A DNA stretch of 64,000 nucleotides from Rhodobiaceae bacterium. GTDB taxonomy: Bacteria > Pseudomonadota > Alphaproteobacteria > Rhizobiales > JANQQB01. Position numbers and translations under genes: made by a program. Under the pieces are notes generated by a model. That model did not search any database. It was given only the letters and a program-made list of their open reading frames with translations, and was not told the DNA's origin. Positions 5,781 to 46,282 of the stretch are shown in pieces; the first letter of the stretch is position 1, and each line of letters begins with the position of its first letter. The DNA lies in NCBI GenBank assembly GCA_028285165.1, contig JANQQB010000331.1:4942-68941 (forward strand), read 5' to 3'.

Positions 5781-7103
5781 ATGAATGACATGACGTTTTT
5801 GGACCTTGGCCTGCCGGCAGGCCTGGTTTCTGTAATCAACAAAGCCGGCTTCACAACCCCCAAACCGATTCAAGAGCAGGCGATCCCCGTCCAGTTGGAG
5901 GGCCGCGACGTGCTCGGCATTGCCCAGACCGGCTCCGGCAAGACCGCAGCGTTCGGTCTGCCGCTGATCACCGGCCTGATCGCCGAGGGCGGGCGGTCGC
6001 TGCCGAAAGCCCCGCGCGGACTGGTGCTCGCCCCGACCCGGGAACTTGCCGTCCAGATCGAAGAGACCTTGCGGACCTTCCTGCGGGGCTCCGGCCTGAC
6101 GACTGTTCTGGTCTTCGGCGGCGTGCCGCGCCGGCCGCAGGTCAACAAACTGGCGCGCGGCGCCGACATCGTGGTGGCAACGCCCGGCCGCCTGAAGGAA
6201 TTGCTCGACACAAAATGCCTGACACTCGCGGAAACCCGCTGGCTGGTGCTCGATGAAGCCGACCGCATGCTCGACATGGGCTTCATACGCGACGTGCGCC
6301 GGATCGTGAAAGCGACGGCATCCAATCGCCGCACGGCTCTGTTTTCCGCCACGATGGACCCGGACGTCGCCGAACTGGCGAACGGATTGCTGCGCGATCC
6401 TGTTCGGATCGACGTCGCCCCGCAGGGCACGACCATCGAGGCCATCCGCCAGGAATTGCTGCCGACGCCCGGTGGCTCGAAACGCGGCCGGCTCGCCAAC
6501 GTGCTGAAGGGCGATGACGTGACCCGGGCCATCGTCTTTACGCGAACGAAACGCTCCGCCGATCGGGTCGCAAAGAATCTCACGACGGACGGCTTTGCAG
6601 TAGCGGCGATCCACGGCAACAAGTCCCAGAATGCACGCCAATCCGCCTTGCGCGGTTTTCGTGACGGCAAGATCAGTGTCCTGGTCGCCACGGACATCGC
6701 CGCGCGCGGCAACGACATCCCGATGATAAGCCACGTCATCAATTACGAACTGCCGGACGAGCCGGATTCCTATGTTCACCGCATCGGCCGAACCGGCCGC
6801 AACGGTGCGACCGGCGCAGCGCTGACGCTGTTCGATCCGGGCGAGCGGGCGAAGTTGAAGGCGATCGAAAAGCTGATCCGTAAGGCCATTCCGCTTGCCG
6901 AAGGTGAAATCGAACTGCCGCAGGAAGACACCAAGAAAAGCCCGGACGAGGGCGGCCGGACAAAGTCCCGCAACCGCAATCGAAAGCCGCGCCGCCCATC
7001 CGCGCGGTCCGGCCGAGGCCGGCCGGCGCGCGGCCAGAAGCGGGCGGAAAAGGGGCGGGCAGGGGCCGGTTCGGCACCCGCTTCGATGACCCCGTCCGTA
7101 TAA
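5781..7103 (+). CDS. rhlE: DEAD-box ATP-dependent RNA helicase
   Basis: Motifs AQTGSGKT, DEAD (VLDEADRMLDMGF), SAT and HRIGRTGR, with a basic Arg/Lys/Gly-rich C-terminal tail. An alternative start lies at 5790 (MTFLDLGL). Confidence 0.9.
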   Translation: MNDMTFLDLGLPAGLVSVINKAGFTTPKPIQEQAIPVQLEGRDVLGIAQTGSGKTAAFGLPLITGLIAEGGRSLPKAPRGLVLAPTRELAVQIEETLRTFLRGSGLTTVLVFGGVPRRPQVNKLARGADIVVATPGRLKELLDTKCLTLAETRWLVLDEADRMLDMGFIRDVRRIVKATASNRRTALFSATMDPDVAELANGLLRDPVRIDVAPQGTTIEAIRQELLPTPGGSKRGRLANVLKGDDVTRAIVFTRTKRSADRVAKNLTTDGFAVAAIHGNKSQNARQSALRGFRDGKISVLVATDIAARGNDIPMISHVINYELPDEPDSYVHRIGRTGRNGATGAALTLFDPGERAKLKAIEKLIRKAIPLAEGEIELPQEDTKKSPDEGGRTKSRNRNRKPRRPSARSGRGRPARGQKRAEKGRAGAGSAPASMTPSV

Positions 7104-8304: not shown

Positions 8305-10956
8305 TCAGAAATTCAGCGAAATATCGCGGTGATGGGCGCCGCAGGCTGCCGCGTAGAGCGACTGCTCGCGCGTCATGTCGGGCTGGCTGCGCAGGCCGAT
8401 CGTGTCGCGGATTGCGACCTGATAGGCCGACAGGTCCTCAGACAGGTCGGCTGCCGCCCGTTCCCGCCAGGCGATGTCCGCCTGATAGGCTTCGACGGCT
8501 GCAGCGAGTTCCTTGTCGGCTTCTTCGGGTTCCGGCGTGCGTTTGCGCAGGGCCCGGCGTGCGCGCGACAAGAGCCGCTTGATATCGCGGGTCCCGGCCA
8601 CGCTGTCGATGAGGCGTTCCTTTTCCTCGATATACTCGACGGCCTGTTCAGGCGTCATCGCCGCAACGTCTTCGCGCACCGTCACGATCCGGTCGTTGAG
8701 GGCCTTCAGGGTCGCCGCATCGGCCAGCATCTTGTTCATCTCGTCAACGGGTTCGTACGCATCGTCGGCGTTGCGGCGATAGGTCAGGCGCGCGGTGCGT
8801 TCCGCCTTGACCAATTCGGAGAACGTGCCGTTTTCCGCTTCCCAGGTTTCGGGGATGGACGCCAGCAGTGCGTCGCGTTCGGCCGTCAGAGCGGTGATGC
8901 GTTCCTCGGCGCGGATTTGTGCCCGGCTGCCGTCTTCTGCGCGGCGGGCCGTGGTTTCCAGATCCTCGATGCGCCCGGCAAGGCGCCGTGCTGCCGCTTC
9001 GAGGTCGCGCACGCGGCGATGCAGCGGCCGATAGGCATCCGCCGCGGCCGCGATCGCCGCCTCGGCGGTCTTGATGTCCGCCATGCGGTCGAAACTGCCC
9101 GCCGCCTTTTCAAAGCTTTCCTCGAGTTCTTCCCTGAGGTCTTCCGGCAGATAGGAGATGTCGAGCGCCTGCGCTCTGCTGATTGCGCTGCGAATTGCCG
9201 TACCGCGCTCGGCAAACTGCTCGTTGACATATTCTTCGAGGCAGTACTGAAGGCGCGGATTAAGCGGCGGCGGCGCGGTTTCCGATGTCAGCGCGACGCG
9301 GTTCGGCAGGTAATTCACCAGCGACGGATAGACCCCAACAATCACCAGCGCCAGCAATTGCAGGCCGATAAAGGCGATGACGCCCTTGTACATCTGGATC
9401 GTCTTGACGACGGCGGGCGCCACGCCGCGTAAATAGAACAGCGCAAATCCGAAGGGTGGTGTCAGGAACGAGGTCTGGATGTTCAGACCGATCATCACAC
9501 CGAGCCAGACGGCGGTGACGTTCGCCGACGGATCAGCAAGCAGGATCGGCGCGACGATGGGCACCACGACCACGGCGATTTCGATGAAGTCGAGGAAGAA
9601 GCCGAGCACGAAGATCACCGCCATGACGATGATGAACTTGCTCCAGAACCCGCCCGGCAGGCCGTTCAGGAAGTCGCGCACCAATTCCTCGCCGCCGAAC
9701 GCGCGAAACGCGGCGGTCAGCATCGCCGCGCCAAGCAGGATGATGAAGACGAGCGAGGTTGTCTTTGCCGTTTCGATCATCACGCCGGTGAGCGTGTCGT
9801 CCGTGCGAAACGCTCGGTACCCGCTCCAGGCGATCGCGGTCACAAGGCCGAGCACGGAGATCACGGCCAGCGTCACCCCGATCTGGTCGGAGGTCGTATT
9901 GATGCTCTTCACATTGGTGTCGAAGAACGACAGGACAAGGCCGATCGAACAGAGCGAGACGAGCGCAAGGATCGCCGGATAGAATGCCCGGGGCCGCCCT
10001 TCGTAGAGCCGGTAGCCGGCCATCACCATGGCGCCGACGGCGCCGATCGCGCCGGCCTGGTTCACGGTCGCAATGCCGCCGATGATCGAGCCGAGCACCA
10101 GGAAGATCAGCGTCAGCGGCGGGATCAGCGTCAACGCCACCTTGCCGGCAAAGCGCTTGTCGTATTTGCCTTCATAGTGCACGGCCGGAGCCAATTTCGG
10201 GCGCAGCAGCGCGATCCCGAGGATGAAGGCGATGTAAAGCCCAACCAGAACGAGGCCGGGCACCATGGCGCCGAGGAACATGTCGCCGGCGCTCGTCGAG
10301 ACGACGCCGAATTCCGACGGCATAGAGACTTCGCCGGTGGTTTCCCGGAACAGGGTCTTGCGCGCCGTATCGGCCTGGTCGACGGCACTTGCCAATTGGT
10401 CGGCCAGGATAATCAGCACGATGGATGGCGGGATGATCTGTCCGAGTGTGCCGGACGCCGCGATCGTGCCGGTGGCGAGCGCCTTTGAATAATTATGCTT
10501 CAGCATGGCCGGCAGCGAGATCAGGCCCATGGCGACGACCGTTGCGCCGACGATGCCGGTGGTCGCGGCCAGGAGGGCGCCCACCACGACGACGGAAATG
10601 CCGAGGCCGCCGGGTACCGGACCGAAGAGCTGCGCCATCGTGACCAGCAGATCCTCTGCGATCTTGGAGCGCTGCAGCATGATGCCCATGAAGATGAACA
10701 GCGGAATCGCGATGAGTGTGTCGCGTTCCGGTTCCCAATAGACGCCACGCAGGTTGGTGACCCCCGCGCTCAGCCATTGGGCCGGGCCGCCATGCGCGAA
10801 ATAGGCGTCGGTGTCGCCGGCAAACAGGTAGCCGAACAGGGCGGCCAGCACGATGGAGATGATCGCCGAGCCGGGCAGGGCGAACGCCACCGGATAGCCG
10901 GAGCCGAGCGCGAAGGCCATCAGGACGATGAGCAGAGCGAGAAAGACGAGTTCCAT
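8305..10956 (-). CDS. TRAP transporter large permease (DctM family) with ~330-aa C-terminal coiled-coil extension
   Basis: The N-terminal ~550 aa are polytopic DctM-like (GIMLQRSKIAEDL, GTLGQIIPPSIVLI, FLTPPFGFALFYLRG). The last ~329 aa (8308-9294) are hydrophilic and rich in Ala/Glu/Arg heptad-like sequence. Confidence 0.85.
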   Translation of the reverse strand: MELVFLALLIVLMAFALGSGYPVAFALPGSAIISIVLAALFGYLFAGDTDAYFAHGGPAQWLSAGVTNLRGVYWEPERDTLIAIPLFIFMGIMLQRSKIAEDLLVTMAQLFGPVPGGLGISVVVVGALLAATTGIVGATVVAMGLISLPAMLKHNYSKALATGTIAASGTLGQIIPPSIVLIILADQLASAVDQADTARKTLFRETTGEVSMPSEFGVVSTSAGDMFLGAMVPGLVLVGLYIAFILGIALLRPKLAPAVHYEGKYDKRFAGKVALTLIPPLTLIFLVLGSIIGGIATVNQAGAIGAVGAMVMAGYRLYEGRPRAFYPAILALVSLCSIGLVLSFFDTNVKSINTTSDQIGVTLAVISVLGLVTAIAWSGYRAFRTDDTLTGVMIETAKTTSLVFIILLGAAMLTAAFRAFGGEELVRDFLNGLPGGFWSKFIIVMAVIFVLGFFLDFIEIAVVVVPIVAPILLADPSANVTAVWLGVMIGLNIQTSFLTPPFGFALFYLRGVAPAVVKTIQMYKGVIAFIGLQLLALVIVGVYPSLVNYLPNRVALTSETAPPPLNPRLQYCLEEYVNEQFAERGTAIRSAISRAQALDISYLPEDLREELEESFEKAAGSFDRMADIKTAEAAIAAAADAYRPLHRRVRDLEAAARRLAGRIEDLETTARRAEDGSRAQIRAEERITALTAERDALLASIPETWEAENGTFSELVKAERTARLTYRRNADDAYEPVDEMNKMLADAATLKALNDRIVTVREDVAAMTPEQAVEYIEEKERLIDSVAGTRDIKRLLSRARRALRKRTPEPEEADKELAAAVEAYQADIAWRERAAADLSEDLSAYQVAIRDTIGLRSQPDMTREQSLYAAACGAHHRDISLNF

Positions 10957-35085: not shown

Positions 35086-36168
35086 TCAGTCTCCGTCGAG
35101 CGAATTGAAGCCGAGTGTCAGGCCAAGCGCTCTCGGAAGCCCCTCCGACAGGAGGCCGGCACCACCGCCCAAAGGGATCCGGGCGTAAGCGAGCTTTTGG
35201 TGTCCTTCGATATCGCCGGCGGTCGCGATCCAGCCTCTTTTGCGGGCGTTGAGCGTTTCGATGACGCCGATCGCCTGGTTGATCTCGAACCGGAACGAGC
35301 CGATCACCCATTTGTCGTCAGGCGCTAGAAGCGCGCTGAAATTGCGATTGGCAATCAGATCTCGCATGGCTTCCAGATTGGCCTGCATGGACCGGAACGT
35401 CAGATCCGAGCGCCAGAACGGCGCGCGTTTCGGTTTCGCCGCCTCGGGCGCCTTGCCGAGCGATGCCCCGATCTTCAGATCGCGCACGATCGTCACCTGT
35501 TCATTCGCTGACCGGACAAAATCCTGAAGCACTTCCGCGGCGGAGCGGTAGACCGAATTGTCGGGTCCTGGATTGCGGGCGAGCTTTCCATAAGGGCCGG
35601 TCCAGCCGTCGAGCAGTTCGCCGGCGGTCAACGCAACGTTTCCGGCGATCGCCTGGGCATAGCGGCACCGGAACACGTCGCCCTCGCTCAGCGTATCGGA
35701 CCCCGTGCCAAAGAGCGCGAACTCAAGCGCCAGGAGACCCTGAACGGCAACGCTTTTCCTGCGCAGCGTGGTCGCGGCAATCGCGCTCGGGCTTTGTCCC
35801 GCGATCAGGGCCTGGACCTGCTTGAGCCCGCGTCCGCGCCGGTCCGGCCAGAAGAACAGGCGCTCGAACCGGTTGTCGGCTCGCGCCGGCCCGAAACGAA
35901 TGAACTCGATCCTCGACCAGGCGTTTACGAGACGACCGAAATCCTCACGTGCCGTTGCGAGCGCCGGTGCCCCCGGCGTCTCGCACAAGGCGGTGAGGCT
36001 GGAAGACTGGCGGTCCGATGCCGCCTTCAACGCGCGATAGCCGGGTTCGACCACATTATCCAGAATATGGGCGACGACCGATGCCCGCGCGTCCTCATCG
36101 GCCGCAACAGGAGCAGCCGGAAGCAGGCAAAGGACAGCAACGAGGACAGGCAGACGGCGTTTCATCAC
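35086..36168 (-). CDS. Imelysin family protein (peptidase M75-like), copy 2
   Basis: Signal peptide MMKRRLPVLVAVLCLLPAAPVAA, a helical imelysin-like sequence, and a 4-nt overlap with the DUF1111 gene. Confidence 0.65.
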   Translation of the reverse strand: MMKRRLPVLVAVLCLLPAAPVAADEDARASVVAHILDNVVEPGYRALKAASDRQSSSLTALCETPGAPALATAREDFGRLVNAWSRIEFIRFGPARADNRFERLFFWPDRRGRGLKQVQALIAGQSPSAIAATTLRRKSVAVQGLLALEFALFGTGSDTLSEGDVFRCRYAQAIAGNVALTAGELLDGWTGPYGKLARNPGPDNSVYRSAAEVLQDFVRSANEQVTIVRDLKIGASLGKAPEAAKPKRAPFWRSDLTFRSMQANLEAMRDLIANRNFSALLAPDDKWVIGSFRFEINQAIGVIETLNARKRGWIATAGDIEGHQKLAYARIPLGGGAGLLSEGLPRALGLTLGFNSLDGD

Positions 36169-37754
36169 AACGACTCAAGGAACCGGATCAGGTCGGCGCG
36201 CTCGGCGGATGTCAGGTCGACAACACGATCGCGCGCGGCCTGCGCTTCGCCACCATGCCACAAAATCGCTTCAAGCAGCGAGCGGGCGCGCCCGTCGTGC
36301 AAGAAATAGGTATGCCCGTTTACGGTTTCGGTAAGGCCGATGCCCCAGAGCGGCGCCGTGCGCCATTCCTGGCCGGAGGCATCGCCGACGGGCCGGCCGT
36401 CGGCCAGACCAGGGCCCATATCGTGCAACAACATGTCGGTATAGGGCCAGATCAGCTGGAACCGGTGTTCTTTCTGGAGCGCATCGCGCGAGGTCACGAA
36501 TTTCGGCACGTGGCAGGCGACACAACCGGTTTCGTAAAACACCCGCTTGCCCCGCAGCACGTCCGGCGCATCAACATCCCGGCGCGCCGGCACCGCCAGA
36601 TTGCGTGAATAAAAGACCACCAGATCGAGGATCGGGTCGGGGGCTTCGGTATCGCCGAGCCGCTCCTGGACGCCGTGCGGGGCGGCCACACAAGCCGCCT
36701 GGTTTTCGGTGCAATCCCCCCAGGCTGCGGGCGCATGCGGATTGGAGATGCCGATATCTCCGGCAAAGGCGCCGGCGCTCTGCGCGTGCACAGTCGGGTT
36801 GGAGGCTTTCCAGCCGAAGCGGCCGAGCGTCAGAGCCTCGGTCGCCGGATCACGCACGATGCTCACTTTTCCCGAAATGCCGTCACCATCCAGATCATCG
36901 GGATCGGCGAGCGCTTCGATGTCGACGCGGTGGATCGCTTCCAACAATCCAAGTCCGATCATCGGCGGCGCGATGCGCGGCGACAGCATGGTTTCCGGGT
37001 CGAGCGGTCCGTAGCCCAACCGGTCGACGGAATAGGTCGGCTTGCGCAGGCTGACGGTCTCGCCGCCGTTCAATTCGACTTCGATTTCCTCATAGGTGAT
37101 ACGCATGCGGCCTTCACCGGGCAGGCCGGGAACCGCAAAATCCTGCAATTGTCCGCCATAAGTCGGCTCGGGAATGCGCAGCAGCGTCTTGCGGGCGAGT
37201 GCGTCGTGTTCCGCCTCGGTCCGCGGCGGTACCGAGAGCCTCAGGAACATCGAGGTCGCCAGGTCGTCGGGACCTTCTGGAGGATGGCCGCGGCCGTCCT
37301 TCAAATGGCAGCGCTGGCAGGACCGCGCGTTAAACAGCGGTCCCAATCCGTCGGACGCCTGTGTCGACGATGGCGACGACACCCAGACTTTTTTGAAAAG
37401 CCCGTTTCCGAGCTTGAAATCCTGTTCGCCTTCGAAGCTGAGATTGCCCAGCGGATCGGAAAACGCGTTGCGGTTGGCGCGAGCCCGGGACGTTGCGGCA
37501 CCGGCCGACATGCGCTCGAAACGCTCTGGCGCGGAGAAATCCGAGGTTGGCCGCGTCACAGTTTCGACGCGTGCCCGATCCTTGTCGCTAAGGTCCTGGC
37601 GGACCGTCAACCCGGTTGCAGCGGCGTCCAACGCTACAACGCCTAGACCAAACAAACAAAAGGGGACAAACAGAACAGGGGCGGCTCCTGAGAAACCACC
37701 CCTGCATGCCGACCTCACCAATCGGTTTCGGTCGGAATCGGACGATGCGGTCAT
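36165..37754 (-). CDS. Di-heme cytochrome c 'oxidoreductase/peroxidase' (DUF1111 family)
   Basis: Two CxxCH motifs (CQRCH, CVACH). The ATG at 37754 overlaps the stop of the Bfd-like gene (ATGA). The longer track ORF to 38075 was rejected. Confidence 0.85.
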   Translation of the reverse strand: MTASSDSDRNRLVRSACRGGFSGAAPVLFVPFCLFGLGVVALDAAATGLTVRQDLSDKDRARVETVTRPTSDFSAPERFERMSAGAATSRARANRNAFSDPLGNLSFEGEQDFKLGNGLFKKVWVSSPSSTQASDGLGPLFNARSCQRCHLKDGRGHPPEGPDDLATSMFLRLSVPPRTEAEHDALARKTLLRIPEPTYGGQLQDFAVPGLPGEGRMRITYEEIEVELNGGETVSLRKPTYSVDRLGYGPLDPETMLSPRIAPPMIGLGLLEAIHRVDIEALADPDDLDGDGISGKVSIVRDPATEALTLGRFGWKASNPTVHAQSAGAFAGDIGISNPHAPAAWGDCTENQAACVAAPHGVQERLGDTEAPDPILDLVVFYSRNLAVPARRDVDAPDVLRGKRVFYETGCVACHVPKFVTSRDALQKEHRFQLIWPYTDMLLHDMGPGLADGRPVGDASGQEWRTAPLWGIGLTETVNGHTYFLHDGRARSLLEAILWHGGEAQAARDRVVDLTSAERADLIRFLESL

Positions 37755-38206
37755 TGGGCCTCGGCTTGTTCCTTCACGGGCGCGTTCGCGAGATCGCCAT
37801 GGCGGATCCGGTCGGGAGACGAGGACACATGAAGCGCCTCCCGACCGGTTGCACCACGGGTAATACCCGTCGCGGTCTGGGGAACCATGCGGGCTCGCTG
37901 GTCGCGGCGGTCCTTGAGGGCGCGCAGACGGGTCAGCGTGCGTTCCGCCCAGCGGCGTCGTTCCGCATGCCGTGCCTGGTCGGCGAAGATCGGGACATGC
38001 GGGCTGTCGCCGTTGCGGATTTCGTCGACCGTGGCGATCATCACGTCGATCAGGGTCGGGAAACATCCGCAGCATTTGCCGCGTTTGTTCAGCCCGTGCA
38101 GGACGGCGCCGGGGGTCAGGTGGATCCAGGGGTCGTCGGCCAGAAGGCTCGCAATGACTCCATCGATATCCGCCTTAGAGATGATGTTGCAATGGCAAAT
38201 GATCAT
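37751..38206 (-). CDS. Bfd-like (2Fe-2S)-binding protein with ~90-aa basic C-terminal extension
   Basis: MIICHCNIISKADIDG...GKCCGCFPTL shows the C-x-C ... C-x2-C pattern of bacterioferritin-associated ferredoxin. Confidence 0.75.
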   Translation of the reverse strand: MIICHCNIISKADIDGVIASLLADDPWIHLTPGAVLHGLNKRGKCCGCFPTLIDVMIATVDEIRNGDSPHVPIFADQARHAERRRWAERTLTRLRALKDRRDQRARMVPQTATGITRGATGREALHVSSSPDRIRHGDLANAPVKEQAEAQ

Positions 38207-38232: not shown

Positions 38233-39465
38233 CTATTCGAACACGGCACTTGGATTGTCGAGACTGTCGGAGCCTTCGAAGTCGATGGATCCGAGATCGA
38301 GCGCGGCGACCACCCGTTCGATCGAGCGGGTCTGATCGACGAGGCCGTCGATGGCGGCTTGCACCACACCATTCCCGACCGCGTTGCCTTCGCCGATCAT
38401 CTGATCATAGGCTTCGATGCTCTCCGCGCGGGCTTTCATGGCCGCCATGGCGCCAACTGTCGCGTCGAGTTTGTCCGTCAGTTCGGCATCGAGAGCCGCA
38501 TCCGATTGCGCGACGAGGTCCGACACGGACGGTCCGGAAACCACCGACCCATCAACCCGGCGATAATGACCCGAATAGACGTTGCGAATGCCGATCTGAT
38601 TGAAATAGTGGGAATTGTGCGTGTTGTCGGCGAAACAATCATGCTCTTCTTCCGGGTCGTGCAGGAGCAAGCCGAGCTTCATGCGCTCGCCGGCCAGTTC
38701 GCCGTAGGACAGAGACCCCATCCCGGTCATGAGAGCCGTCAGGCCGGCCTTCGGATCTGACGTGACGCCGGTACGCGCGGCACCGCCGTCGGCCCAATTC
38801 CCGACCATTTCTTCCAGATCTGCGATCAAAAGCGTTGATGCGGATTTCAGATAGGCTGCGCGCCGGTCGCAATTGCCGTTGGTGCAGGCGGCTGTATCAA
38901 AGTCGGTTGCCGGGCGGTTGCCAGCGCCGGCTCCCGTGCCGTTGAGATCCTGGCCCCAGAGCAGAAACTCGATTGCGTGATATCCGGTCGCGACATTGGC
39001 CTCGACATCTTCCGCCTCGTGCAGCACGTCAGACAGGAGGGTCGGCGAGATCGTACTGGCATCGACGCTTGCGCCGTTCACGGTCAAGCTGGCATTGGCG
39101 ATGACGTTGACGGTGTAGAGCGCGTTTTCGTCCGCCTCGGTGCCGTATGAGGAATCGACATAGTCGATCAGCCCTTCGTCGAGCGGCCAGGCATTCACCC
39201 GTCCTTCCCAATCGTCGACGATGGCATTGCCGAACCGAAAGACTTCGGTCTGCTGATAGGGAACCCGCGCGGCGACCCAGGCGGCGCGCGCGGCCAGCAG
39301 CGTTGCCTCCGACGGCGCAGCGATCAGGGCATCGATAGCCGCGTCGAGCGCACGCGCGGTTGTCAGACTGTCTTCGAAACCGGCCAGTGCGATATCCGCG
39401 TAGGTCGACACGATCTCCTCAGGCGTTGCTGCACTTGCGGGAGCAGACCACAGGCCGAGACCCAA
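38233..39465 (-). CDS. Imelysin family protein (peptidase M75-like), copy 1; true start probably upstream of 39465
   Basis: GYHAIEFLLWGQDL (imelysin GxHxxE motif). The track start is the TTG at 39465. A signal-peptide-like sequence continues in frame upstream to 39534 without a canonical start (see findings). Confidence 0.8.
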   Translation of the reverse strand: MGLGLWSAPASAATPEEIVSTYADIALAGFEDSLTTARALDAAIDALIAAPSEATLLAARAAWVAARVPYQQTEVFRFGNAIVDDWEGRVNAWPLDEGLIDYVDSSYGTEADENALYTVNVIANASLTVNGASVDASTISPTLLSDVLHEAEDVEANVATGYHAIEFLLWGQDLNGTGAGAGNRPATDFDTAACTNGNCDRRAAYLKSASTLLIADLEEMVGNWADGGAARTGVTSDPKAGLTALMTGMGSLSYGELAGERMKLGLLLHDPEEEHDCFADNTHNSHYFNQIGIRNVYSGHYRRVDGSVVSGPSVSDLVAQSDAALDAELTDKLDATVGAMAAMKARAESIEAYDQMIGEGNAVGNGVVQAAIDGLVDQTRSIERVVAALDLGSIDFEGSDSLDNPSAVFE

Positions 39466-39552
39466 TGCCGTTGCGGCTGCGAACGCAGGAAGCCTTCCTG
39501 CCCGAAGCTCGTTCCTGAAGGTTTGATACGTGATGGAGTTTACCTTTTGCCT

Positions 39553-40053
39553 CTAGTGAAAATGTTCGCGGGGGGGCCGTGCGGCGATATCCTCGATCAC
39601 GGCGTAGGGCACGGGCATCAAGGTCTGTCCCATGTCGTTCAGGCTTCCGGCTAGGCCGTCTGCCGTTTTTTCGGTTTCGGACCGGCCATTGGGCTCGACC
39701 AGGTGGTCGAGGCAAAAGCCGGCGGATGCGGCATCGTTGTGCTGCAGGGCGGCGATGAGCGACACGGCGAGGCACTCGTCACGGCACAGGCGTTGGCATT
39801 GAAACGGAAAGAACCGGCGCGGTTCGTGCGACCACGTCCGGAACGTGCGCACCCAGCAGGTCAGCGCAGAAAGCGCAACGCGCCCGTCCGTCGGGCCCAA
39901 TTCCTTGGCAAAGAGCGACCAGGCCAGTTCCCAAGGTGTGATGGATCCGGTTTCGTAACCGGCCATCCAATACCGATAGCCGTCGATCACAAGCCGTTCC
40001 GGAAGGCGGTCCAACAGGCAGGTCCGGTTGCCGCACGGGAGTTTTATCGCCAT
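39553..40053 (-). CDS. Hypothetical 166-aa Cys-containing cytoplasmic protein, first gene of the imelysin operon
   Basis: MAIKLPCGNRTCLLDRLPERL...FPFQCQRLCRDECLAV. The ATG at 40053 has GGAG 8-11 nt upstream. No family recognised. Confidence 0.5.
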   Translation of the reverse strand: MAIKLPCGNRTCLLDRLPERLVIDGYRYWMAGYETGSITPWELAWSLFAKELGPTDGRVALSALTCWVRTFRTWSHEPRRFFPFQCQRLCRDECLAVSLIAALQHNDAASAGFCLDHLVEPNGRSETEKTADGLAGSLNDMGQTLMPVPYAVIEDIAARPPREHFH

Positions 40054-40221
40054 CGCATCACTCCGTCTCGGTGAGGCGATCGCGGAAACCGGCGTGCGAA
40101 GAGGAGGCCAGTACTGGAAGAACATGGGCGTCCGGTCGTGCGAAAATCGGGCAAATCGGCAGCCCTTCCGGCTCCGACAGTCCGCCTTTCCAACCGACAA
40201 TCCGTCGGTGCGCAAAGCGAA

Positions 40222-40391
40222 GGTTTCATCTCATCGATCCAATCAACAGGGTTAAAGGCCCAGCCATCAGACTTGTCGCGAATGCAACGCAGAACCATAA
40301 GCACATAGAATCTGACGTGACAACAAAAAAGATAACAAAAACAGTAGTTTAGAATGATTATAGATTGGAATTATTCCAATTCTAAACTAGC
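40222..40391 (-). promoter_or_regulatory. Promoter/operator plus conserved leader module, copy A
   Basis: On the minus strand: TTAGAA-17 nt-TATAAT (-10 at 40362-40357). Nested palindromes are TAGTTTAGAAT-N23-ATTCTAAACTA (40345-40389) and TTGGAAT-T-ATTCCAA (40365-40379). Homologous to 42043-42206. Confidence 0.6.
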
Positions 40392-40395
40392 GCTT

Positions 40396-40599
40396 TCAGG
40401 ACCGTGGCTCCGCCGGCAGGCCGAGGCGTTTCAAGAGGCCGACAAGCGTCACCGGCTCAGACGTGCCGTCCTCGGGGTGGTCGCAGCCTTGCAGCCGGTC
40501 GATTTCAAAGCCGATCGCGCCGCAATTCTCGCAATCGCCGCAGCAGGTCTTGGCGACCGAGAGCAGATCCGAGCGGGATACGGAGGATTTGTCTGACAT
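40396..40599 (-). CDS. Hypothetical 67-aa Cys-rich protein (CCGDCENCG...C), coupled to the DUF2325 gene
   Basis: Its ATG directly follows the TGA of the upstream gene (TGAATG). Third-position GC is about 80% by my count, supporting coding. Five Cys residues. Confidence 0.5.
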   Translation of the reverse strand: MSDKSSVSRSDLLSVAKTCCGDCENCGAIGFEIDRLQGCDHPEDGTSEPVTLVGLLKRLGLPAEPRS

Positions 40600-41862
40600 T
40601 CATTGCTCCCCTGTGCGTGGGGTGTCCAAGGTCGAGGCGAGCCGTTCGAGCGCTGTGCGAAACGAGGACTGGCTGGCGCTGCGCAGCGGCAGAAACGGCT
40701 TTTCCAGACGTTGACAGGCCCGCTTCGCCCGGATGCACGCATCATGGCTCACGCAATCGACCGGACACAGAACGCAATCCACCGACGGCAGGAGCCGGTC
40801 CAGCCGTTGCGGTGTCTGCTCCAGACCTCCGTCATGGTGACGCAGGTCCACGTCGAACTCAGCGGCCACTGTGCGCAGGCGATCGACGACGCTGTTGAGC
40901 CCCCCGATATAAAGAACGACCTTGCCGGAGAGGGCGTCGCTGCGATCAAGCGATTCAGGCTCCGGCGTGTCCCGATCCGCAGACCGATTGGTTTCGACAA
41001 GCCCTGTCCCGTCGCCGACCGGAGTGCCGAAGAGCCGCAGGCGCTCTTCAAGGGCCTTCTCGCTGCGTTCCGCCTGCCGTGCCCGTTCGCGGGCCGATAC
41101 CAGGGCCCGTTCGAGTTTTTCCATGCGCAGATTCGTCTTGCGGCGACGTGTTCCGTGTCGGGCAAAAGTAGTTTTTTCGGCTGCCGCAACCTGACCCTTG
41201 AGCCGGGCCATCTCCTCGCGCAGGCCGGCAATCTCCTCGTCGCGAGCCCGGATGGCGTCATGCAGGCCCGCTTCGTTGCGGCGGGCGCGGTCGAGCGCGT
41301 CCTGCAGTTGATCGCGCAGCGCGACGGTCTCAACGGCTTGCTTGCGGAAGGTCGCGCCGGCAAGATGCGACAGCATGTGCACCTCGCCGAAGATCCGGTT
41401 GCGCATTGGGGCAGGGATATGGCCATGCGTCATGAATGCCCAATAGGCGGCGGCGATCTGGCCCTTGTCGCGCATGTCGTCCCACAGGTCGGCAAGGTCC
41501 GTGTCGTCGCGTGTGCGGCCGACACGCCGAACGGCGCCGGTATATCGCTCGTCCATCATCTTCTGGAACAGGCGTGTGAACGGGCCGTTCTTTGTCGATT
41601 CCGCGACGAAATAACCGTGGATCTCATAGTCCGCCGCGTCGGCGTCGATGACGACGGACAATCGGTTTGCAAGCCGCCGAAGATCCGTCACCGAGGCACA
41701 GGTGCCGACAATGGAGCAGTGCACGTTTTCGGGAATTTCATGCAGCTTGATACGTCGCTTCTGCCCGTTCGTGCGGCTTTGGGGGCGGTTGAGACTCGAA
41801 CCAAGGTCTGCAAGCCTGCCTGAAAGCGAAAATTTCGGCAGATTGTCTCGCGCATCACACAT
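40600..41862 (-). CDS. DUF2325 domain protein with N-terminal unknown domain and central coiled coil
   Basis: C-terminus VVLYIGGLNS...RHHDGG...VDCVLCPVDCVSHDACIRAKRACQRLEKPFLPLRSAS fits my recollection of DUF2325. The middle ~100 aa are heptad-like and Arg/Glu/Ala-rich. Confidence 0.65.
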   Translation of the reverse strand: MCDARDNLPKFSLSGRLADLGSSLNRPQSRTNGQKRRIKLHEIPENVHCSIVGTCASVTDLRRLANRLSVVIDADAADYEIHGYFVAESTKNGPFTRLFQKMMDERYTGAVRRVGRTRDDTDLADLWDDMRDKGQIAAAYWAFMTHGHIPAPMRNRIFGEVHMLSHLAGATFRKQAVETVALRDQLQDALDRARRNEAGLHDAIRARDEEIAGLREEMARLKGQVAAAEKTTFARHGTRRRKTNLRMEKLERALVSARERARQAERSEKALEERLRLFGTPVGDGTGLVETNRSADRDTPEPESLDRSDALSGKVVLYIGGLNSVVDRLRTVAAEFDVDLRHHDGGLEQTPQRLDRLLPSVDCVLCPVDCVSHDACIRAKRACQRLEKPFLPLRSASQSSFRTALERLASTLDTPRTGEQ

Positions 41863-42042
41863 CAGCCGGTTCCGGCTCCAAAATGTGTCTCGCAGCCTTG
41901 TCTGTCGTCAGCATGACATGCCGGCAGGCAGGCAATGCCACAACTGCAATTGATCGATAATGGAAAGAAATGGTCTTTCGGAATCGATGAGCGAATGGCG
42001 TGTGTGACCTGTCCGGATCGAGCCGGTTCCGCAAGGCGCATG

Positions 42043-42206
42043 GCTTTCATCTCCAATCAACGGGGGGCAAGGCCCTGTCATCAGATGGGTCACGAGGCAA
42101 CCGTGACCGGAGGGTATAGAATTGCGACGCAATCGCAAGTGTTTTTGTCGAAAAATCAATAGTTTAGAATGATTATACTTTGGAATTATTTCAATTAAAA
42201 AGTAGC
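42043..42206 (-). promoter_or_regulatory. Promoter/operator plus conserved leader module, copy B
   Basis: TAGTTTAGAATGATTATA (42160-42177, with minus-strand TATAAT at 42177-42172) and TTGGAATTATTTCAA (42180-42194). Downstream blocks are shared with copy A. Confidence 0.55.
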
Positions 42207-42372
42207 CTGCCGCATGTCGTCGGCGGCGTCGGAGGAAGTCGGCGGCCAGCCGGGATCGGTCGGATCGATTCCATAGATGGCCGATGGGCGACGGCTTTCG
42301 GAAGGCTTGCCAAGTCGAAGCGATTGATTGTCTACTGACATCTGGATCGGGCAAGAGCGAAGGCGGGGTATC

Positions 42373-43473
42373 GTGTCAGACAGCGTAACCGGAAGTGCCA
42401 TCTCCGTTTCTGGAATCACCAAACGGTTCGGCGACGGTCCGGACGGTGTCACGGCGCTCGACGCGGTTTCCGTCGACATCCGCGAAAACGAGTTTTTCAC
42501 GCTGCTCGGACCCTCCGGCTGCGGCAAGACCACGTTGCTGCGTCTGATCGCCGGGTTCGATCACCCCGACGCCGGGCGCATCCTTTTGCATGGCGAGGAC
42601 ATTTCCGGCCTGCCGCCGTTTCGCCGCTCGGTCAATACGGTCTTCCAGTCCTACGCCCTGTTTCCGCACATGACGGTTGCGGACAATATCGGCTTCGGCC
42701 TTGAAATGCAGGGCCGGCCGAAGGCCGAAATCGGCCGTACCGTCGATGACATGCTGGCGCTGGTGCAGATGGAGGCGCTGAAAAACCGGCGCACCGACCA
42801 GATCTCCGGCGGCCAGCAGCAGCGCGTCGCACTGGCCCGCGCGCTCGCACCGCATCCAAAAGTCCTGCTCCTTGATGAGCCGCTGTCCGCGCTCGACTAC
42901 AAACTGCGCAAGGAAATGCAGATCGAATTGAAACGGCTGCAGCACGAAACCGGCATCACGTTCATCTTCGTGACCCACGACCAGGAAGAGGCGTTGACCA
43001 TGTCGGACCGCATCGCGGTGATGCAGTCCGGCCGCATCCTGCAGATCGGTGCGCCGGAGGAGATCTACGACCGGCCGGCGGACCGGTTCGTCGCCGACTT
43101 TATCGGCGACAGCAATTTCCTTTCCGGCGAGATCCTGGCGCGCGGCGAGGCCGGTCACGCCATTCGGCTGGGATCCGGGTGCGAAGTGCCGGCACGGCTT
43201 CCCGACGGCATGGCAAGCGGCGGCCGCGCCACCATTGTCGTGCGGCCGGAACATGTCGATCTGGTTGCCGGCGGGACTGAGGACACGCTGGCCGGGGTCC
43301 TGGAGAACATCGTCTATTTCGGCACCGACACGCATTTCCATATCCTGCTCGACAGCGGCGAGCCGTTTATTGCCCGCTTGCAGAATACGCGTGGTGCCCG
43401 GCGGGCTTTTGAGACCGGTCAGGCGGTCGGGATCCGCATCGAGCCCGAGGCGATCCAGGTGTTGCGCGACTGA
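42373..43473 (+). CDS. potA: Spermidine/putrescine-type ABC transporter ATP-binding protein
   Basis: [35 protein letters not shown], and a TOBE-like C-terminus. The start is either the GTG at 42373 (RBS AGGCGGGG) or the track start at 42328. Confidence 0.9.
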
Positions 43474-44420
43474 TGGAGGGCTCGCGCGCCGGCCACCAGG
43501 ACCTGAAGGCGGTGCAACCCGCCGTGCTTGAAGAACGCCGTGCCACGCGCGGCAAGTTTCTGCTGACCGTGCCGGCGCTCGTGGTGCTGTTCTTCTGCGC
43601 CCTCGGGCCGCTTGGCATCATGCTGTTCTATTCGTTCCTGACCGCCGGCGATTTCGGGGGGGTGGTGTGGCGGTTTTCGCTTGACGGCTGGTTCAACGTC
43701 TTCTTCGCGCGTGACATCTTCGACGATACAGTTTCGATCGCCGACGCCCACGTTTCGATATTCTGGCGCTCGCTGCGCCTGTCCGTCCTGACCACGCTTT
43801 TGGCGCTGGTGCTCGGGTTTCCGACCGCCTATTTCATCGCCACCCGGCCGGCCGGCTCGCGGAACTTCTGGCTGTTCCTCGTCACCATCCCGTTCTGGAC
43901 CAATCTCCTGATCCGGACCTTCGCCATCATGGAGTTGATCCGTGCGCAGGGCGTTCTGAACACCGCGCTGATGGCACTCGGCCTGATCGACGAACCGCTG
44001 CGCCTCATCTTCACCGACTTCGCGATCATGCTCGGCATGACCTATGTTTACCTGCCGCTGATGGTGCTGCCGCTCTATGCGTCGATGGAAAAGCTCGATT
44101 TCCGGCTGGTCGAGGCCGGGTATGACCTCTACGCCAACCGCCTCCGTGTGCTGTGGCGCATCATCATTCCGCTGGTCAAACCCGGCATTGTCGCCGGTTC
44201 GATCCTGGTCTTCATCCCCTCGCTCGGCGCCTATGTGACGCCACGGGTGCTTGGCGGCGGCAAGAACCTGATGCTCGGCAATCTGATCGAATTGCAGTTC
44301 GGCCAGGGGCGAAACTGGCCGCTCGGCGCGGCCCTGTCGATCACCTTGCTGGCGATCGTCATGGTCGCGCTGATCATCTATGTGCGCAGCGTCCAGAAAT
44401 CGGATCTGCGCCATGGCTAG
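43473..44420 (+). CDS. potB: Polyamine-type ABC transporter permease
   Basis: TGATG overlap with potA and a six-helix permease with an EAA-type loop. Confidence 0.85.
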   Translation: MEGSRAGHQDLKAVQPAVLEERRATRGKFLLTVPALVVLFFCALGPLGIMLFYSFLTAGDFGGVVWRFSLDGWFNVFFARDIFDDTVSIADAHVSIFWRSLRLSVLTTLLALVLGFPTAYFIATRPAGSRNFWLFLVTIPFWTNLLIRTFAIMELIRAQGVLNTALMALGLIDEPLRLIFTDFAIMLGMTYVYLPLMVLPLYASMEKLDFRLVEAGYDLYANRLRVLWRIIIPLVKPGIVAGSILVFIPSLGAYVTPRVLGGGKNLMLGNLIELQFGQGRNWPLGAALSITLLAIVMVALIIYVRSVQKSDLRHG

Positions 44421-45216
44421 TCGCGCCTTTGCCGTCAAACGCCTGCCGGGTTTCGCGACCATCGCCATGGTCTGCTTTTTCCTGCTCTACGCGCCGATTA
44501 TCGCGCTCGTCGTCTACTCCTTCAACGCCGGCTCCTCGATCGCGCTCTGGGAAGGCTTTTCCTGGCGCTGGTACGAGGCCGCCTGGCAGAATGAAAAGGT
44601 GCAAGAGGCGACAATCCGCTCGCTGGTGATCGCGGTCTGTGCCTCCGGCTTTGCGACGACGCTCGCCACCATGGCCGCGCTCGGCACCACGCGCACCAAG
44701 CCCTATCGCGGATTGACGGCGATCTATGCGGCGATCAACCAGCCTCTGATGGTGCCGGAGATCGTTACCGGCGTCGCGCTCCTCATCTTCTTTGCAATCA
44801 TCAAGCAGGCGACCGGCTATCACGGCCTGTCCTATCTGATCGCCGCCCATACCGCGTTCTGCATTCCGTTTGCCTATCTGCCGATCCGGGCCCGACTGGA
44901 AGGCATGGACCTGACCTTGGAAACCGCGGCGGCCGACCTTTACGCAACGCCCTGGATGACGTTCCGGAAGGTGACCCTGCCGCTGCTTTGGCCAGGCATC
45001 CTTGCCGGCGCCATGCTCGCTTTCGTGATTTCCCTGGACGATGTCGTCATCACCGAACTCGTGAAGTCGGCCGGGCAGGACACGCTTCCGACCTACATGC
45101 TCGGCCAGTTGCGCCGGGTCCTGACGCCGGAAATGAACGCCATTTCGACCGTGCTTCTCGGGATCTCCATCCTCATCGTCACGATTTTCTTCTTTCTCAC
45201 GCGAAAACGCGCTTAA
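44413..45216 (+). CDS. potC: Polyamine-type ABC transporter permease
   Basis: The ATG at 44413 overlaps the potB stop. The sequence is PotC-like (LETAAADLYATPWMTFRKVTLPLLWPGI). Confidence 0.85.
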   Translation: MASRAFAVKRLPGFATIAMVCFFLLYAPIIALVVYSFNAGSSIALWEGFSWRWYEAAWQNEKVQEATIRSLVIAVCASGFATTLATMAALGTTRTKPYRGLTAIYAAINQPLMVPEIVTGVALLIFFAIIKQATGYHGLSYLIAAHTAFCIPFAYLPIRARLEGMDLTLETAAADLYATPWMTFRKVTLPLLWPGILAGAMLAFVISLDDVVITELVKSAGQDTLPTYMLGQLRRVLTPEMNAISTVLLGISILIVTIFFFLTRKRA

Positions 45217-45247
45217 CTGACGACAACCTAAAACTGGGAGACATGTC

Positions 45248-46282
45248 ATGCACCGTAAGCTGATTTTCGGAGCCGCCTTACTCGCCATGGCCGGCGGCCT
45301 CGGACCGGCCCACGCAACCGGCGAACTGAACATCTACAATTGGGGCAATTACACCAATCCCGAACTCATCAAGAAGTTCGAGGAAAAGTACGATATCAAG
45401 GTCACCGTCACCGACTATGATTCCAACGATACCGCGCTTGCCAAGGTGAAGGCCGGCGGCCATGGCTTCGACATCGTCGTGCCGTCGGCAAGCTACGTGC
45501 CGATCTGGGTGGGCGAGGGGCTGTTGCTGAACACCCGCGTCGACCAGATGGAGAACTTCAAGCACGTTGCCGCCGAATGGCGCGATGTGGATTGGGATCC
45601 GGGTCGGCAATATACCGCGCCCTGGCAATGGGGCAGCGTCGGCATGGTCGTCGACACCTCGGTCTATGAGGGTGACATCAATACATCCGCCATTTTCCTC
45701 GATCCGCCGGAAGAACTGGTCGGCAAGATCAACGTTGCGCCGGAAATGGGCGACGTGATGGGCATGGCCATCATGTATATGGGCGGCGAGCCCTGCACGG
45801 ATGACCGGGAATTGCTCAAGAAGGTCCGCGACAAGCTCTTGGAAGCCAAGCCGAAATGGCTGTCGATGGATTACGGCGTCATCGAAAAGTTCGCCGGCCG
45901 TGACCTTGCGGCCTCCGCCTACTGGAACGGCGCGGCCTTCCGGGCGCGCGAGAAAAACCCGGACGTGCGCTACGGCTATCCGCGTGAAGGCTATGTATTG
46001 TGGATGGACAGCGTCGCCGTGCTTGCCGATGCCAAGAACGTCGACAACGCCAAGCTGTTTCAGAACTTCATCATGGAACCGGAAAACGCCGCGCTGATTT
46101 CCGCCTTCGCCCGCTATGCCAACGGCATTGCCGGTTCGGAAGAATTCATGCCGGCCGACATGCGCGAAGCGCCGGAAGTGCTCATTCCGGAAGAGTTTGC
46201 CGAGGCCGGTACCTTCATTCCGACCTGCTCGCCGGAAGTCCAGAAGCTTTACACGGCGATCTGGACCGAACTGCAGAAGTAA
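45248..46282 (+). CDS. Polyamine-type (PotD/PotF family) periplasmic binding protein
   Basis: Signal peptide [23 protein letters not shown], then [26 protein letters not shown], typical of PotD/PotF. Confidence 0.85.

Follow-up and report, generated by a model that had tools for sequence, protein, structure and literature searches.

Within a 64,000-nucleotide stretch of the genome of a Rhodobiaceae bacterium (GenBank assembly GCA_028285165.1, contig JANQQB010000331.1, positions 4,942 to 68,941), here called the window, two genes on the minus strand encode a protein of 420 residues with a C-terminal DUF2325 domain and, directly behind it, a Cys-rich protein of 67 residues. The pair makes a good candidate, as yet unproven, for a new component of iron or haem handling. 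Tentatively, and at a little under an even chance, we read it as an iron-starvation-induced, cytoplasmic, dimeric Cys/His pair that binds metal, an iron-sulphur (Fe-S) cluster or haem and senses or relays iron or haem status. The large protein, for which (as for its gene) we use the label DUF2325L, belongs to a family that is known but uncharacterised; it is a solid lead for bacterial iron homeostasis, with a mechanism that we infer. Iron control in the alpha-proteobacteria (Irr, RirA, Fur/Mur) and their use of haem (Hmu, HmuQ/HmuD, HmuP) are well mapped. The gap lies in the passage of cytoplasmic haem and iron among uptake, degradation and storage in bacterioferritin, and the DUF2325L family is a candidate for the missing component because it comprises more than 1,000 clusters of fixed architecture with invariant Cys and His sites and is found repeatedly among iron and haem genes. 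The locus also provides a first testable context for DUF2325, including the gene of Campylobacter jejuni most strongly induced by violet-blue light, and illustrates that small conserved proteins are easily overlooked. Below, L- and P-numbers denote related loci and homologues, respectively. The features of the pair are as follows.

40600 to 41862, minus strand: large gene DUF2325L, an open reading frame (ORF) with an ATG start, 420 aa
41335 to 41760, minus strand: N-terminal all-helical domain, approximately residues 35-176, from alignments and phmmer
41029 to 41412, minus strand: Arg/Glu-rich coiled coil, helices 151-233 and 239-278, from AlphaFold2 secondary structure
40642 to 40917, minus strand: DUF2325 domain, residues 316-407, a four-strand Rossmann-like fold, from Pfam PF10087
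40396 to 40599, minus strand: small gene, 67 aa, from the ORF and its homologues, with an ATG that abuts the TGA of the large gene

The large protein and its family

A preliminary description of this DNA, made from the letters alone, had recognised DUF2325 at the C-terminus of the large protein and left its N-terminal domain unassigned, and profile searches bear out both statements. PF10087 matches residues 316-407 with E=1.8e-21 and 76.5 bits, against a gathering cut-off of 33.6, and the match covers model positions 2-93/94. Residues 1-315 have no match in the Pfam scan, NCBIfam yields just one sub-threshold coiled-coil match for the protein, and the N-domain has no sequence match in Pfam, NCBIfam or the PDB. 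An AlphaFold2 model fed with an alignment of 108 sequences reached a predicted local distance difference test score (pLDDT) of 85.3. In this model the N-domain is all-helical, with seven helices spanning residues 48-145; the coiled coil that had been expected between the domains appears as long helices at 151-233 and 239-278, approximately 125 residues in all, and is followed by a disordered linker; and the C-domain (315-413) is a four-stranded alpha/beta fold with its conserved residues at the C-terminal ends of the strands.

Across the 108 sequences, invariant Cys and His residues are present in both globular domains. In the N-domain C49, G53, T54, C55, H82, W127, H162, S165 and H166 never vary, and in the DUF2325 domain the same is true of Y318, G320, G321, H343, D344, G345, G346, C366, P367, H373 and C383, with H342, C370, S372 and C376 at least 90% conserved. 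The motifs of the DUF2325 domain are thus GG, HHDGG and C366-P367-x2-C370-x-S-H373-x2-C376, plus C383; the model places the invariant C366-P367 at the end of strand beta3.

A PDB search with the large-protein profile returned coiled-coil proteins only. Foldseek against the PDB gave the C-domain only generic matches to Rossmann 2x2, CheY-like receiver and B12-binding-like folds (E>=0.009), and left the N-domain unmatched among the 50 best matches listed. We rejected a CheY-like receiver, B12-binding or PTS-IIB identity, as the best Foldseek match had E=0.009, TM scores were 0.5-0.6 (normalised to target length) and identities 9-18%, and no residues specific to these families were identified in the large protein.

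A word-indexed search recovered 587 full-length homologues with 35-87% identity that cover 83-100% of the query, all of them named either 'DUF2325 domain-containing protein' or 'hypothetical'; at least 585 matches lie in species-representative genomes. When the N-domain alone was used in an exhaustive phmmer search, it returned 1,294 clusters at 50% identity, nearly all of approximately 400 aa and of the same architecture. The succession of N-domain, coiled coil and DUF2325 is supported by collinear, full-length homology that includes the motifs HCSxxGTC and GEVHMLSH. No additional Pfam domain was found in the longer family members, and the DUF2325 domain was present in all long variants tested. 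The hosts are mostly Alphaproteobacteria (Stappia, Hyphomicrobiaceae, Azospirillum, Thalassobaculum and Geminicoccaceae), with further examples in Paraburkholderia, Thiodiazotropha and Desulfogranum. That the family has no known function, as stated earlier, agrees with our full-text literature search, which found none for DUF2325, and no structure or Pfam family assigns one.

The small gene and its product

Read on the minus strand, the TGA of the large gene is followed directly by the ATG of the small gene, as the preliminary description had it. The junction is GGGGAGCAA-TGA-ATG-TCA, with zero spacing, and a GGAG Shine-Dalgarno sequence lies 6 nt upstream of the ATG, within the end of the large gene. 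The five Cys residues counted in the 67-aa ORF are C19, C20, C23, C26 and C39, and its third-position GC content (GC3), first put at about 80%, measures 0.79, compared with 0.72 for the large gene.

The small ORF proved to be conserved. When its profile was run against 5.8 billion protein clusters, nine matched and, with one copy in L082, make ten distinct homologues of 58-69 aa; one NCBI record alone names the small partner, as hypothetical. They share the core (D/E)L(L/M)x(V/I)Ax(T/I)C(C/T/A)GDCENCGA(I/V)G(F/Y)E(L/I)DR, with the Cys pattern C19-x3-C23-x2-C26, in which C19 and C26 are invariant and C23 is present in 9 of the 10 sequences; the C-terminal half is variable. This 30-residue core remains near-invariant while identity of the large protein falls to approximately 56%. 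In comparisons of the three closest relatives, the whole small ORF has a ratio of nonsynonymous to synonymous substitution rates (dN/dS) of 0.28-0.35 and the large gene one of 0.15; for a 36-codon core the ratio is 0.06-0.5 across seven loci, with dS up to >2. Judged by these substitution patterns, the small gene codes for a protein under purifying selection.

We weighed the opposite possibility, that the small ORF is a chance ORF, or that its translation alone matters, for instance by keeping the mRNA occupied by ribosomes as far as the next promoter. The family is tiny (nine clusters), its C-terminal half varies in sequence and length, and the small ORFs at the same position in other clades lack detectable homology to it. 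The conserved core and its low dN/dS at dS up to >2 speak against this explanation, as do the start abutting the DUF2325L stop in 7/7 loci compared, the GC3 value and the Shine-Dalgarno sequence visible in the window, and we regard it as very improbable.

The idea of a two-gene module held in one direction. Every copy of the small gene on the contigs that were read follows DUF2325L with zero spacing (TGA ATG or TAG ATG) and precedes orf166-imelysin-DHOR-imelysin-DUF1513, and three more small proteins appear to share contigs with the DUF2325L homologues P0008, P0009 and P0010. In the other direction the module did not hold, as the large gene mostly occurs without the partner, which is confined to one clade whose large proteins are at least ~55% identical to that of the window.

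No Pfam match was obtained for six members of the small family even at E<=10, nor any PDB match with the profile. Two identities were considered and rejected: Fer2_BFD (PF04324), because Pfam gave no match and the spacing is C-x3-C-x2-C, not C-x-C...C-x2-C; and Radical SAM, where the Cys spacing fits but the protein has only 67 aa and no Radical_SAM match.

Some other DUF2325L genes (L003, L017, L020, L004 and L010) have a small Cys-containing ORF that overlaps their stop (ATGA). HMM cross-searches between the small-protein family of the window and these ORFs were empty, and hhalign gave probabilities <2% for the positional small ORFs of other clades. A regular expression for small Cys ORFs was enriched at this position, in a test that is post-hoc and circular. 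By sequence, then, these ORFs are positional analogues only. At L004 (~2068-2547) and L010 (~9191-9685) the overlapping ORF runs in frame into an HmuQ-like ABM gene with no stop between them; such a fusion, if it does not stem from a sequencing error, would add a Cys-rich N-terminal extension to HmuQ. A small CxxxC...CxGCxR protein directly follows DUF2325L in Azospirillum sp. (L054, ~6284-6541) and Arenibaculum (L058, ~9074-9379); from the motif we take it to be DUF1289-like, and the L058 copy has no NCBIfam match.

Genomic neighbourhood of the family

For a wider view of context, crude gene calls lying no more than 6 kb from any of 82 family members were clustered, and representatives were checked by Pfam and NCBIfam. 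At least 44 of the 82 loci have one or more iron or haem genes, a lower bound given that many contigs are short. By number of loci the neighbours are imelysin (15), hemP (12), ABM (12), orf166 (11), DUF1513 (11), Rrf2 (10), di-haem oxidoreductase (DHOR, 9), TonB (9, with ExbB/D) and an AphA-like regulator (9), with bacterioferritin (Bfr, 7), Fe3+-binding protein (7), haem ABC components (6-7) and Bfd (5) being rarer. The hemP, ferritin and TonB identities were upheld by Pfam/NCBIfam, the Rrf2 representative that was checked scores RirA-like, and the ABM neighbour, which often overlaps the DUF2325L stop, is the HmuQ haem-degrading equivalog of NCBIfam (170.7 bits). The usual order in Stappia is hemP divergent from DUF2325L-HmuQ (hemP is usually divergent in its 12 loci), and in Hyphomicrobiaceae it is Rrf2, Fe3+-binding protein, orf166, (Bfd), DUF2325L, Bfr. 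The gene that follows, HmuQ in Stappia or bacterioferritin in Hyphomicrobiaceae, overlaps or abuts the DUF2325L stop in several loci. The metal or redox link suggested in the preliminary description is strengthened by these neighbourhoods, as it is by ICE-like boxes upstream of relatives (see below).

The presence of HmuQ, hemP, HmuT/U, a TonB-dependent receptor, bacterioferritin and DHOR would also suit a haem-specific role, in which DUF2325 is a cytoplasmic haem-binding or trafficking domain that ligates haem through its Cys-Pro site, which resembles a haem-regulatory motif, and through His373. Haem would be handed to HmuQ, or bacterioferritin or catalase would be loaded or sensed, and the small peptide would be a clade add-on. 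C366-P367 and H373 are invariant in the 108 sequences, the small ORFs of L004 and L010 are in frame with HmuQ, DUF2325 is found in anammox bacteria at loci of cytochrome-fused encapsulins, and the C. jejuni DUF2325 gene adjoins katA and a haem-trafficking ankyrin protein (PMC9426514). However, in the model the Cys-Pro ends a buried beta-strand within a folded domain, unlike typical flexible haem-regulatory motifs, and four conserved Cys within 18 residues more closely resemble a site for a metal or a cluster. Haem genes are missing from the surroundings of many family members, and no HmuQ stands beside the pair in the window. We consider a haem-specific role unlikely.

Another reading of the same gene orders is that the coiled-coil protein is an adaptor that binds bacterioferritin and/or Bfd and controls iron release in response to an Fe-S or metal signal. 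The gene lies between Bfd and Bfr (orf166, Bfd, DUF2325L, Bfr) in L023, L047, L051, L144, L149, L153 and L159, an overlap with the bfr start occurs in some loci (L028 and L029), and a coiled coil joined to Cys-rich domains would suit an adaptor. NCOA4, the ferritin receptor of eukaryotes, offers an analogy. Most loci, that of the window included, nevertheless have no bfr within 6 kb; such storage gating strikes us as quite improbable.

Rrf2, AphA-like and LysR regulators adjoin DUF2325L. In Rhodospirillales-type loci (L053, L055-L057, L063, L064, L069, L071 and L076) DUF2325L and the gene for a PadR/AphA-like regulator (PF14557) apparently form an operon, an arrangement that hints at a sensor-regulator pairing.

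Promoter modules and leaders

The pair and the imelysin cluster that follows it were described as sharing a palindromic module. Two copies are indeed present, each with a TATAAT, and both operons have further elements in their leaders.

42160 to 42204, minus strand: promoter/operator module copy B, lying ~300 nt ahead of the large gene (exact repeat, palindrome, TATAAT)
40345 to 40389, minus strand: promoter/operator module copy A, directly after the stop of the small gene (exact repeat, palindrome, TATAAT)
42052 to 42085, minus strand: 34-nt leader box copy B (UCUGAUGACAGGGCCUUGCCCCCCGUUGAUUGGA), conserved, ending in the Shine-Dalgarno sequence of the leader ORF
40238 to 40271, minus strand: leader box copy A, conserved, in the orf166 leader
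41862 to 42041, minus strand: leader ORF of ~59 aa (MRLAEPARSG...), with a TGA that overlaps the start codon of the large gene (cTGATG)
~40050 to 40230, minus strand: second leader ORF of ~60 aa (MKPSLCAPTDC...GVMRWR-stop), before orf166

The block common to both modules is an AT-rich nested palindrome of approximately 45 nt; TAGTTTAGAATGATTATA occurs exactly twice, at 40345 and 42160, with no occurrence expected by chance. Because TATAAT is on the minus strand in both copies, copy B can drive the DUF2325L-small pair and copy A can drive orf166-imelysin-Bfd-DHOR-imelysin-DUF1513; the promoter of copy A, TTTAGA-N18-TATAAT, has 10/12 matches to sigma-70. The module is kept in L001, L002, L082, L083 and L085. 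Rodionov et al. 2006 (PMC1698941) give TTTAGAA-N3-TTCTAAA as the ICE consensus and count irpA (imelysin) and bfd-bfr among the members of the Irr/ICE regulon; a keyword search of the main text turned up no DUF2325-type gene. The module includes TTTAGAA and TTCTAAA, each a perfect ICE half-site, and encloses the palindrome TTGGAA-N3-TT(C/T)CAA (TTGGAA-N3-TTCCAA). Its best 17-mers have 2 (copy A) and 3 (copy B) mismatches to the full consensus, with ~0.4 such matches per window expected by chance. ICE-like boxes are ~9-fold enriched within 500 nt upstream of family members, and Stappia relatives carry TTTGGAA-N3-TTCCAAA upstream. From these sites we reasonably infer that both operons would be under Irr-type iron-responsive control.

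The leader box, UCUGAUG(G/A)CnGGGCCUUnnnCCCnGUUGAUUGGA, is found in the leaders of both operons and only in loci of this clade, with two copies each in L001, L002 and L082-L087 and one in L088. It lies 114-116 nt after TATAAT in 12 of 13 leaders and 131 nt after it in the other, and its end coincides with the Shine-Dalgarno sequence of a leader ORF. RNAalifold folds it into a G·U-rich hairpin of 12 pairs, and 7/7 one-sided changes preserve pairing. We rejected a stable RNA hairpin, as there were no compensatory changes and stability relative to shuffled sequences gave z values of -0.56 and +0.07; a search of positions 39400-42500 against Rfam returned no match at E<=1. The box could be a binding site for a protein or a small RNA. 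The position of the leader ORF before the large gene is filled in 6/7 related loci, with poor conservation of frame and sequence; the position of the second leader ORF likewise recurs in related loci, and its frame and sequence are no better kept. The stop of the second leader ORF, which the scripted check did not list, appears to overlap the orf166 start in the window (ATGGCGATAA).

Proposed function of the pair

Under the tentatively preferred reading, the operon would be de-repressed on iron limitation alongside the imelysin/di-haem uptake cluster next to it. The large protein would be a cytoplasmic dimer that holds metal, an Fe-S cluster or haem, with C49, C55, H82, H162 and H166 as candidate ligands in the N-domain and a candidate DUF2325 pocket formed by H342, H343, D344, C366-P367, C370, H373, C376 and C383. 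The small peptide, as an accessory subunit that carries a cofactor, would dock on it. The pair, itself neither transporter nor DNA-binding regulator, would report or relay the iron or haem status of the cytoplasm and so link uptake (imelysin-DHOR, Hmu) with degradation or storage (HmuQ, Bfd/bacterioferritin).

Several points weigh against this proposal. An AlphaFold2 run on the large and small proteins joined end to end (420+67 aa), with no alignment supplied, was uninformative (pLDDT 49.2, predicted template modelling score 0.28). Since Foldseek matches are generic Rossmann-like ones only, the DUF2325 pocket might just as well be a site for a nucleotide or phosphate. In L002 a Ser takes the place of one core Cys, out of three, of the small protein. 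Most family members lack the small partner and usually have other genes downstream of the large gene, so that the partner is not essential to the core function of the family. The full-site ICE matches contain 2-3 mismatches. Finally, the adjacent regulators could mean that the large protein acts as a co-sensor, or just that its gene is a target of regulation.

A bolder version would make the family an unrecognised class of bacterial cytoplasmic iron/haem sensor-adaptors, functionally NCOA4-like, in which a labile Fe-S cluster or haem in the invariant Cys-Pro...Cys...His...Cys pocket would gate haem breakdown by HmuQ and the release of iron from Bfr/Bfd, the mini-protein would complete the cofactor in the clade of the window and the leader box could be a target of feedback. 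We regard this as a long shot.

Other genes of the window

Downstream of the small gene, on the same strand, lie orf166, an imelysin gene, a Bfd-like ORF, DHOR, a second imelysin gene and DUF1513.

39553 to 40053, minus strand: orf166, Cys-rich, 166 aa from the conserved start MAIKLPCGNRTC
37751 to 38206, minus strand: Bfd-like ORF (MIICHCNIIS...CCGCFP)
36165 to 38075, minus strand: DHOR ORF, 636 aa as mechanically called, overlapping the Bfd-like ORF

The mechanically called orf166 of 220 aa is over-extended. Its product is a Cys-rich cytoplasmic protein with the motifs G(F/Y)RxW...WE.AW...FCRDEC...QH and has no Pfam or NCBIfam family. In 80 metagenomic loci the usual arrangement is Rrf2, orf166, Bfd (mostly 29-125 nt downstream) and Bfr, or alternatively orf166 directly follows the gene for an Fe3+-binding protein. 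The large gene is present in just 6 of these 80 loci, and we rejected orf166 as an obligate partner of DUF2325L; it is an uncharacterised iron-regulon family independent of DUF2325L. The true start of DHOR is probably some 110-130 codons later than called, because its homologues are 505-525 aa long. The Bfd-like ORF of the window has no Pfam/NCBIfam match and its counterpart in L083 has just a faint Fer2_BFD flag.

Divergent from module B is a four-gene ABC transporter (42328-46282, plus strand) comprising genes for an ATPase, for two permeases and for an apparently PotD/PotF-like binding protein. L083 and L002 retain the divergent ATPase, which in L083 carries a TOBE_2 domain. Arginase and CN-hydrolase genes replace the transporter in L082 and L085, together with agmatine-deiminase in L082.

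Comparison with known systems

FeoC is a small Cys-rich cytoplasmic protein encoded by the last gene of the iron-regulated feoABC operon; it is confined to certain lineages and can be dispensed with in many relatives. The small protein of the window and FeoC are alike in having a short Cys cluster, in being encoded by the last coupled gene of an iron-linked operon, in their restriction to a lineage and in the fact that many relatives do without them. They differ in that neither sequence nor Pfam comparison matches the one to the other, the Cys spacing of the small protein (C-x3-C-x2-C) is not that of FeoC, and it is partnered by a soluble coiled-coil protein in place of a transporter. Bfd, an iron-regulon protein, is likewise small and Cys-containing; it has a representative in the cluster of the window (37751-38206), and it adjoins DUF2325L in other genomes, but its C-x-C...C-x2-C arrangement differs from the C-x3-C-x2-C of the small protein, which does not match Fer2_BFD. 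HemP/HmuP is another small protein of haem and iron loci; it shows no similarity, lacks Cys and has its own family (PF10636).

At the level of regulation, the window resembles the Irr/ICE regulon, as given in the main text of PMC1698941, in its half-sites, its TTGGAA-N3-TTCCAA palindrome and its imelysin genes (irpA and bfd-bfr being members of that regulon), whereas its module is a 45-nt composite and not a single 17-nt ICE. The closest parallel for the large protein is Cj1384c of C. jejuni, a DUF2325 protein of unassigned function, the sole one to have been studied, with 104 aa and 7 Cys, whose gene is reported to be regulated by PerR and RacRS and to adjoin katA, and which showed the strongest induction of any gene, 352-fold, under violet-blue light, a generator of reactive oxygen species (PMC9426514). 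Cj1384c lacks the N-domain, the coiled coil and the small partner, and the window protein is longer by 300 residues; the two have in common the C-terminal DUF2325 domain, a richness in Cys and a place in a metal or oxidative-stress regulon.

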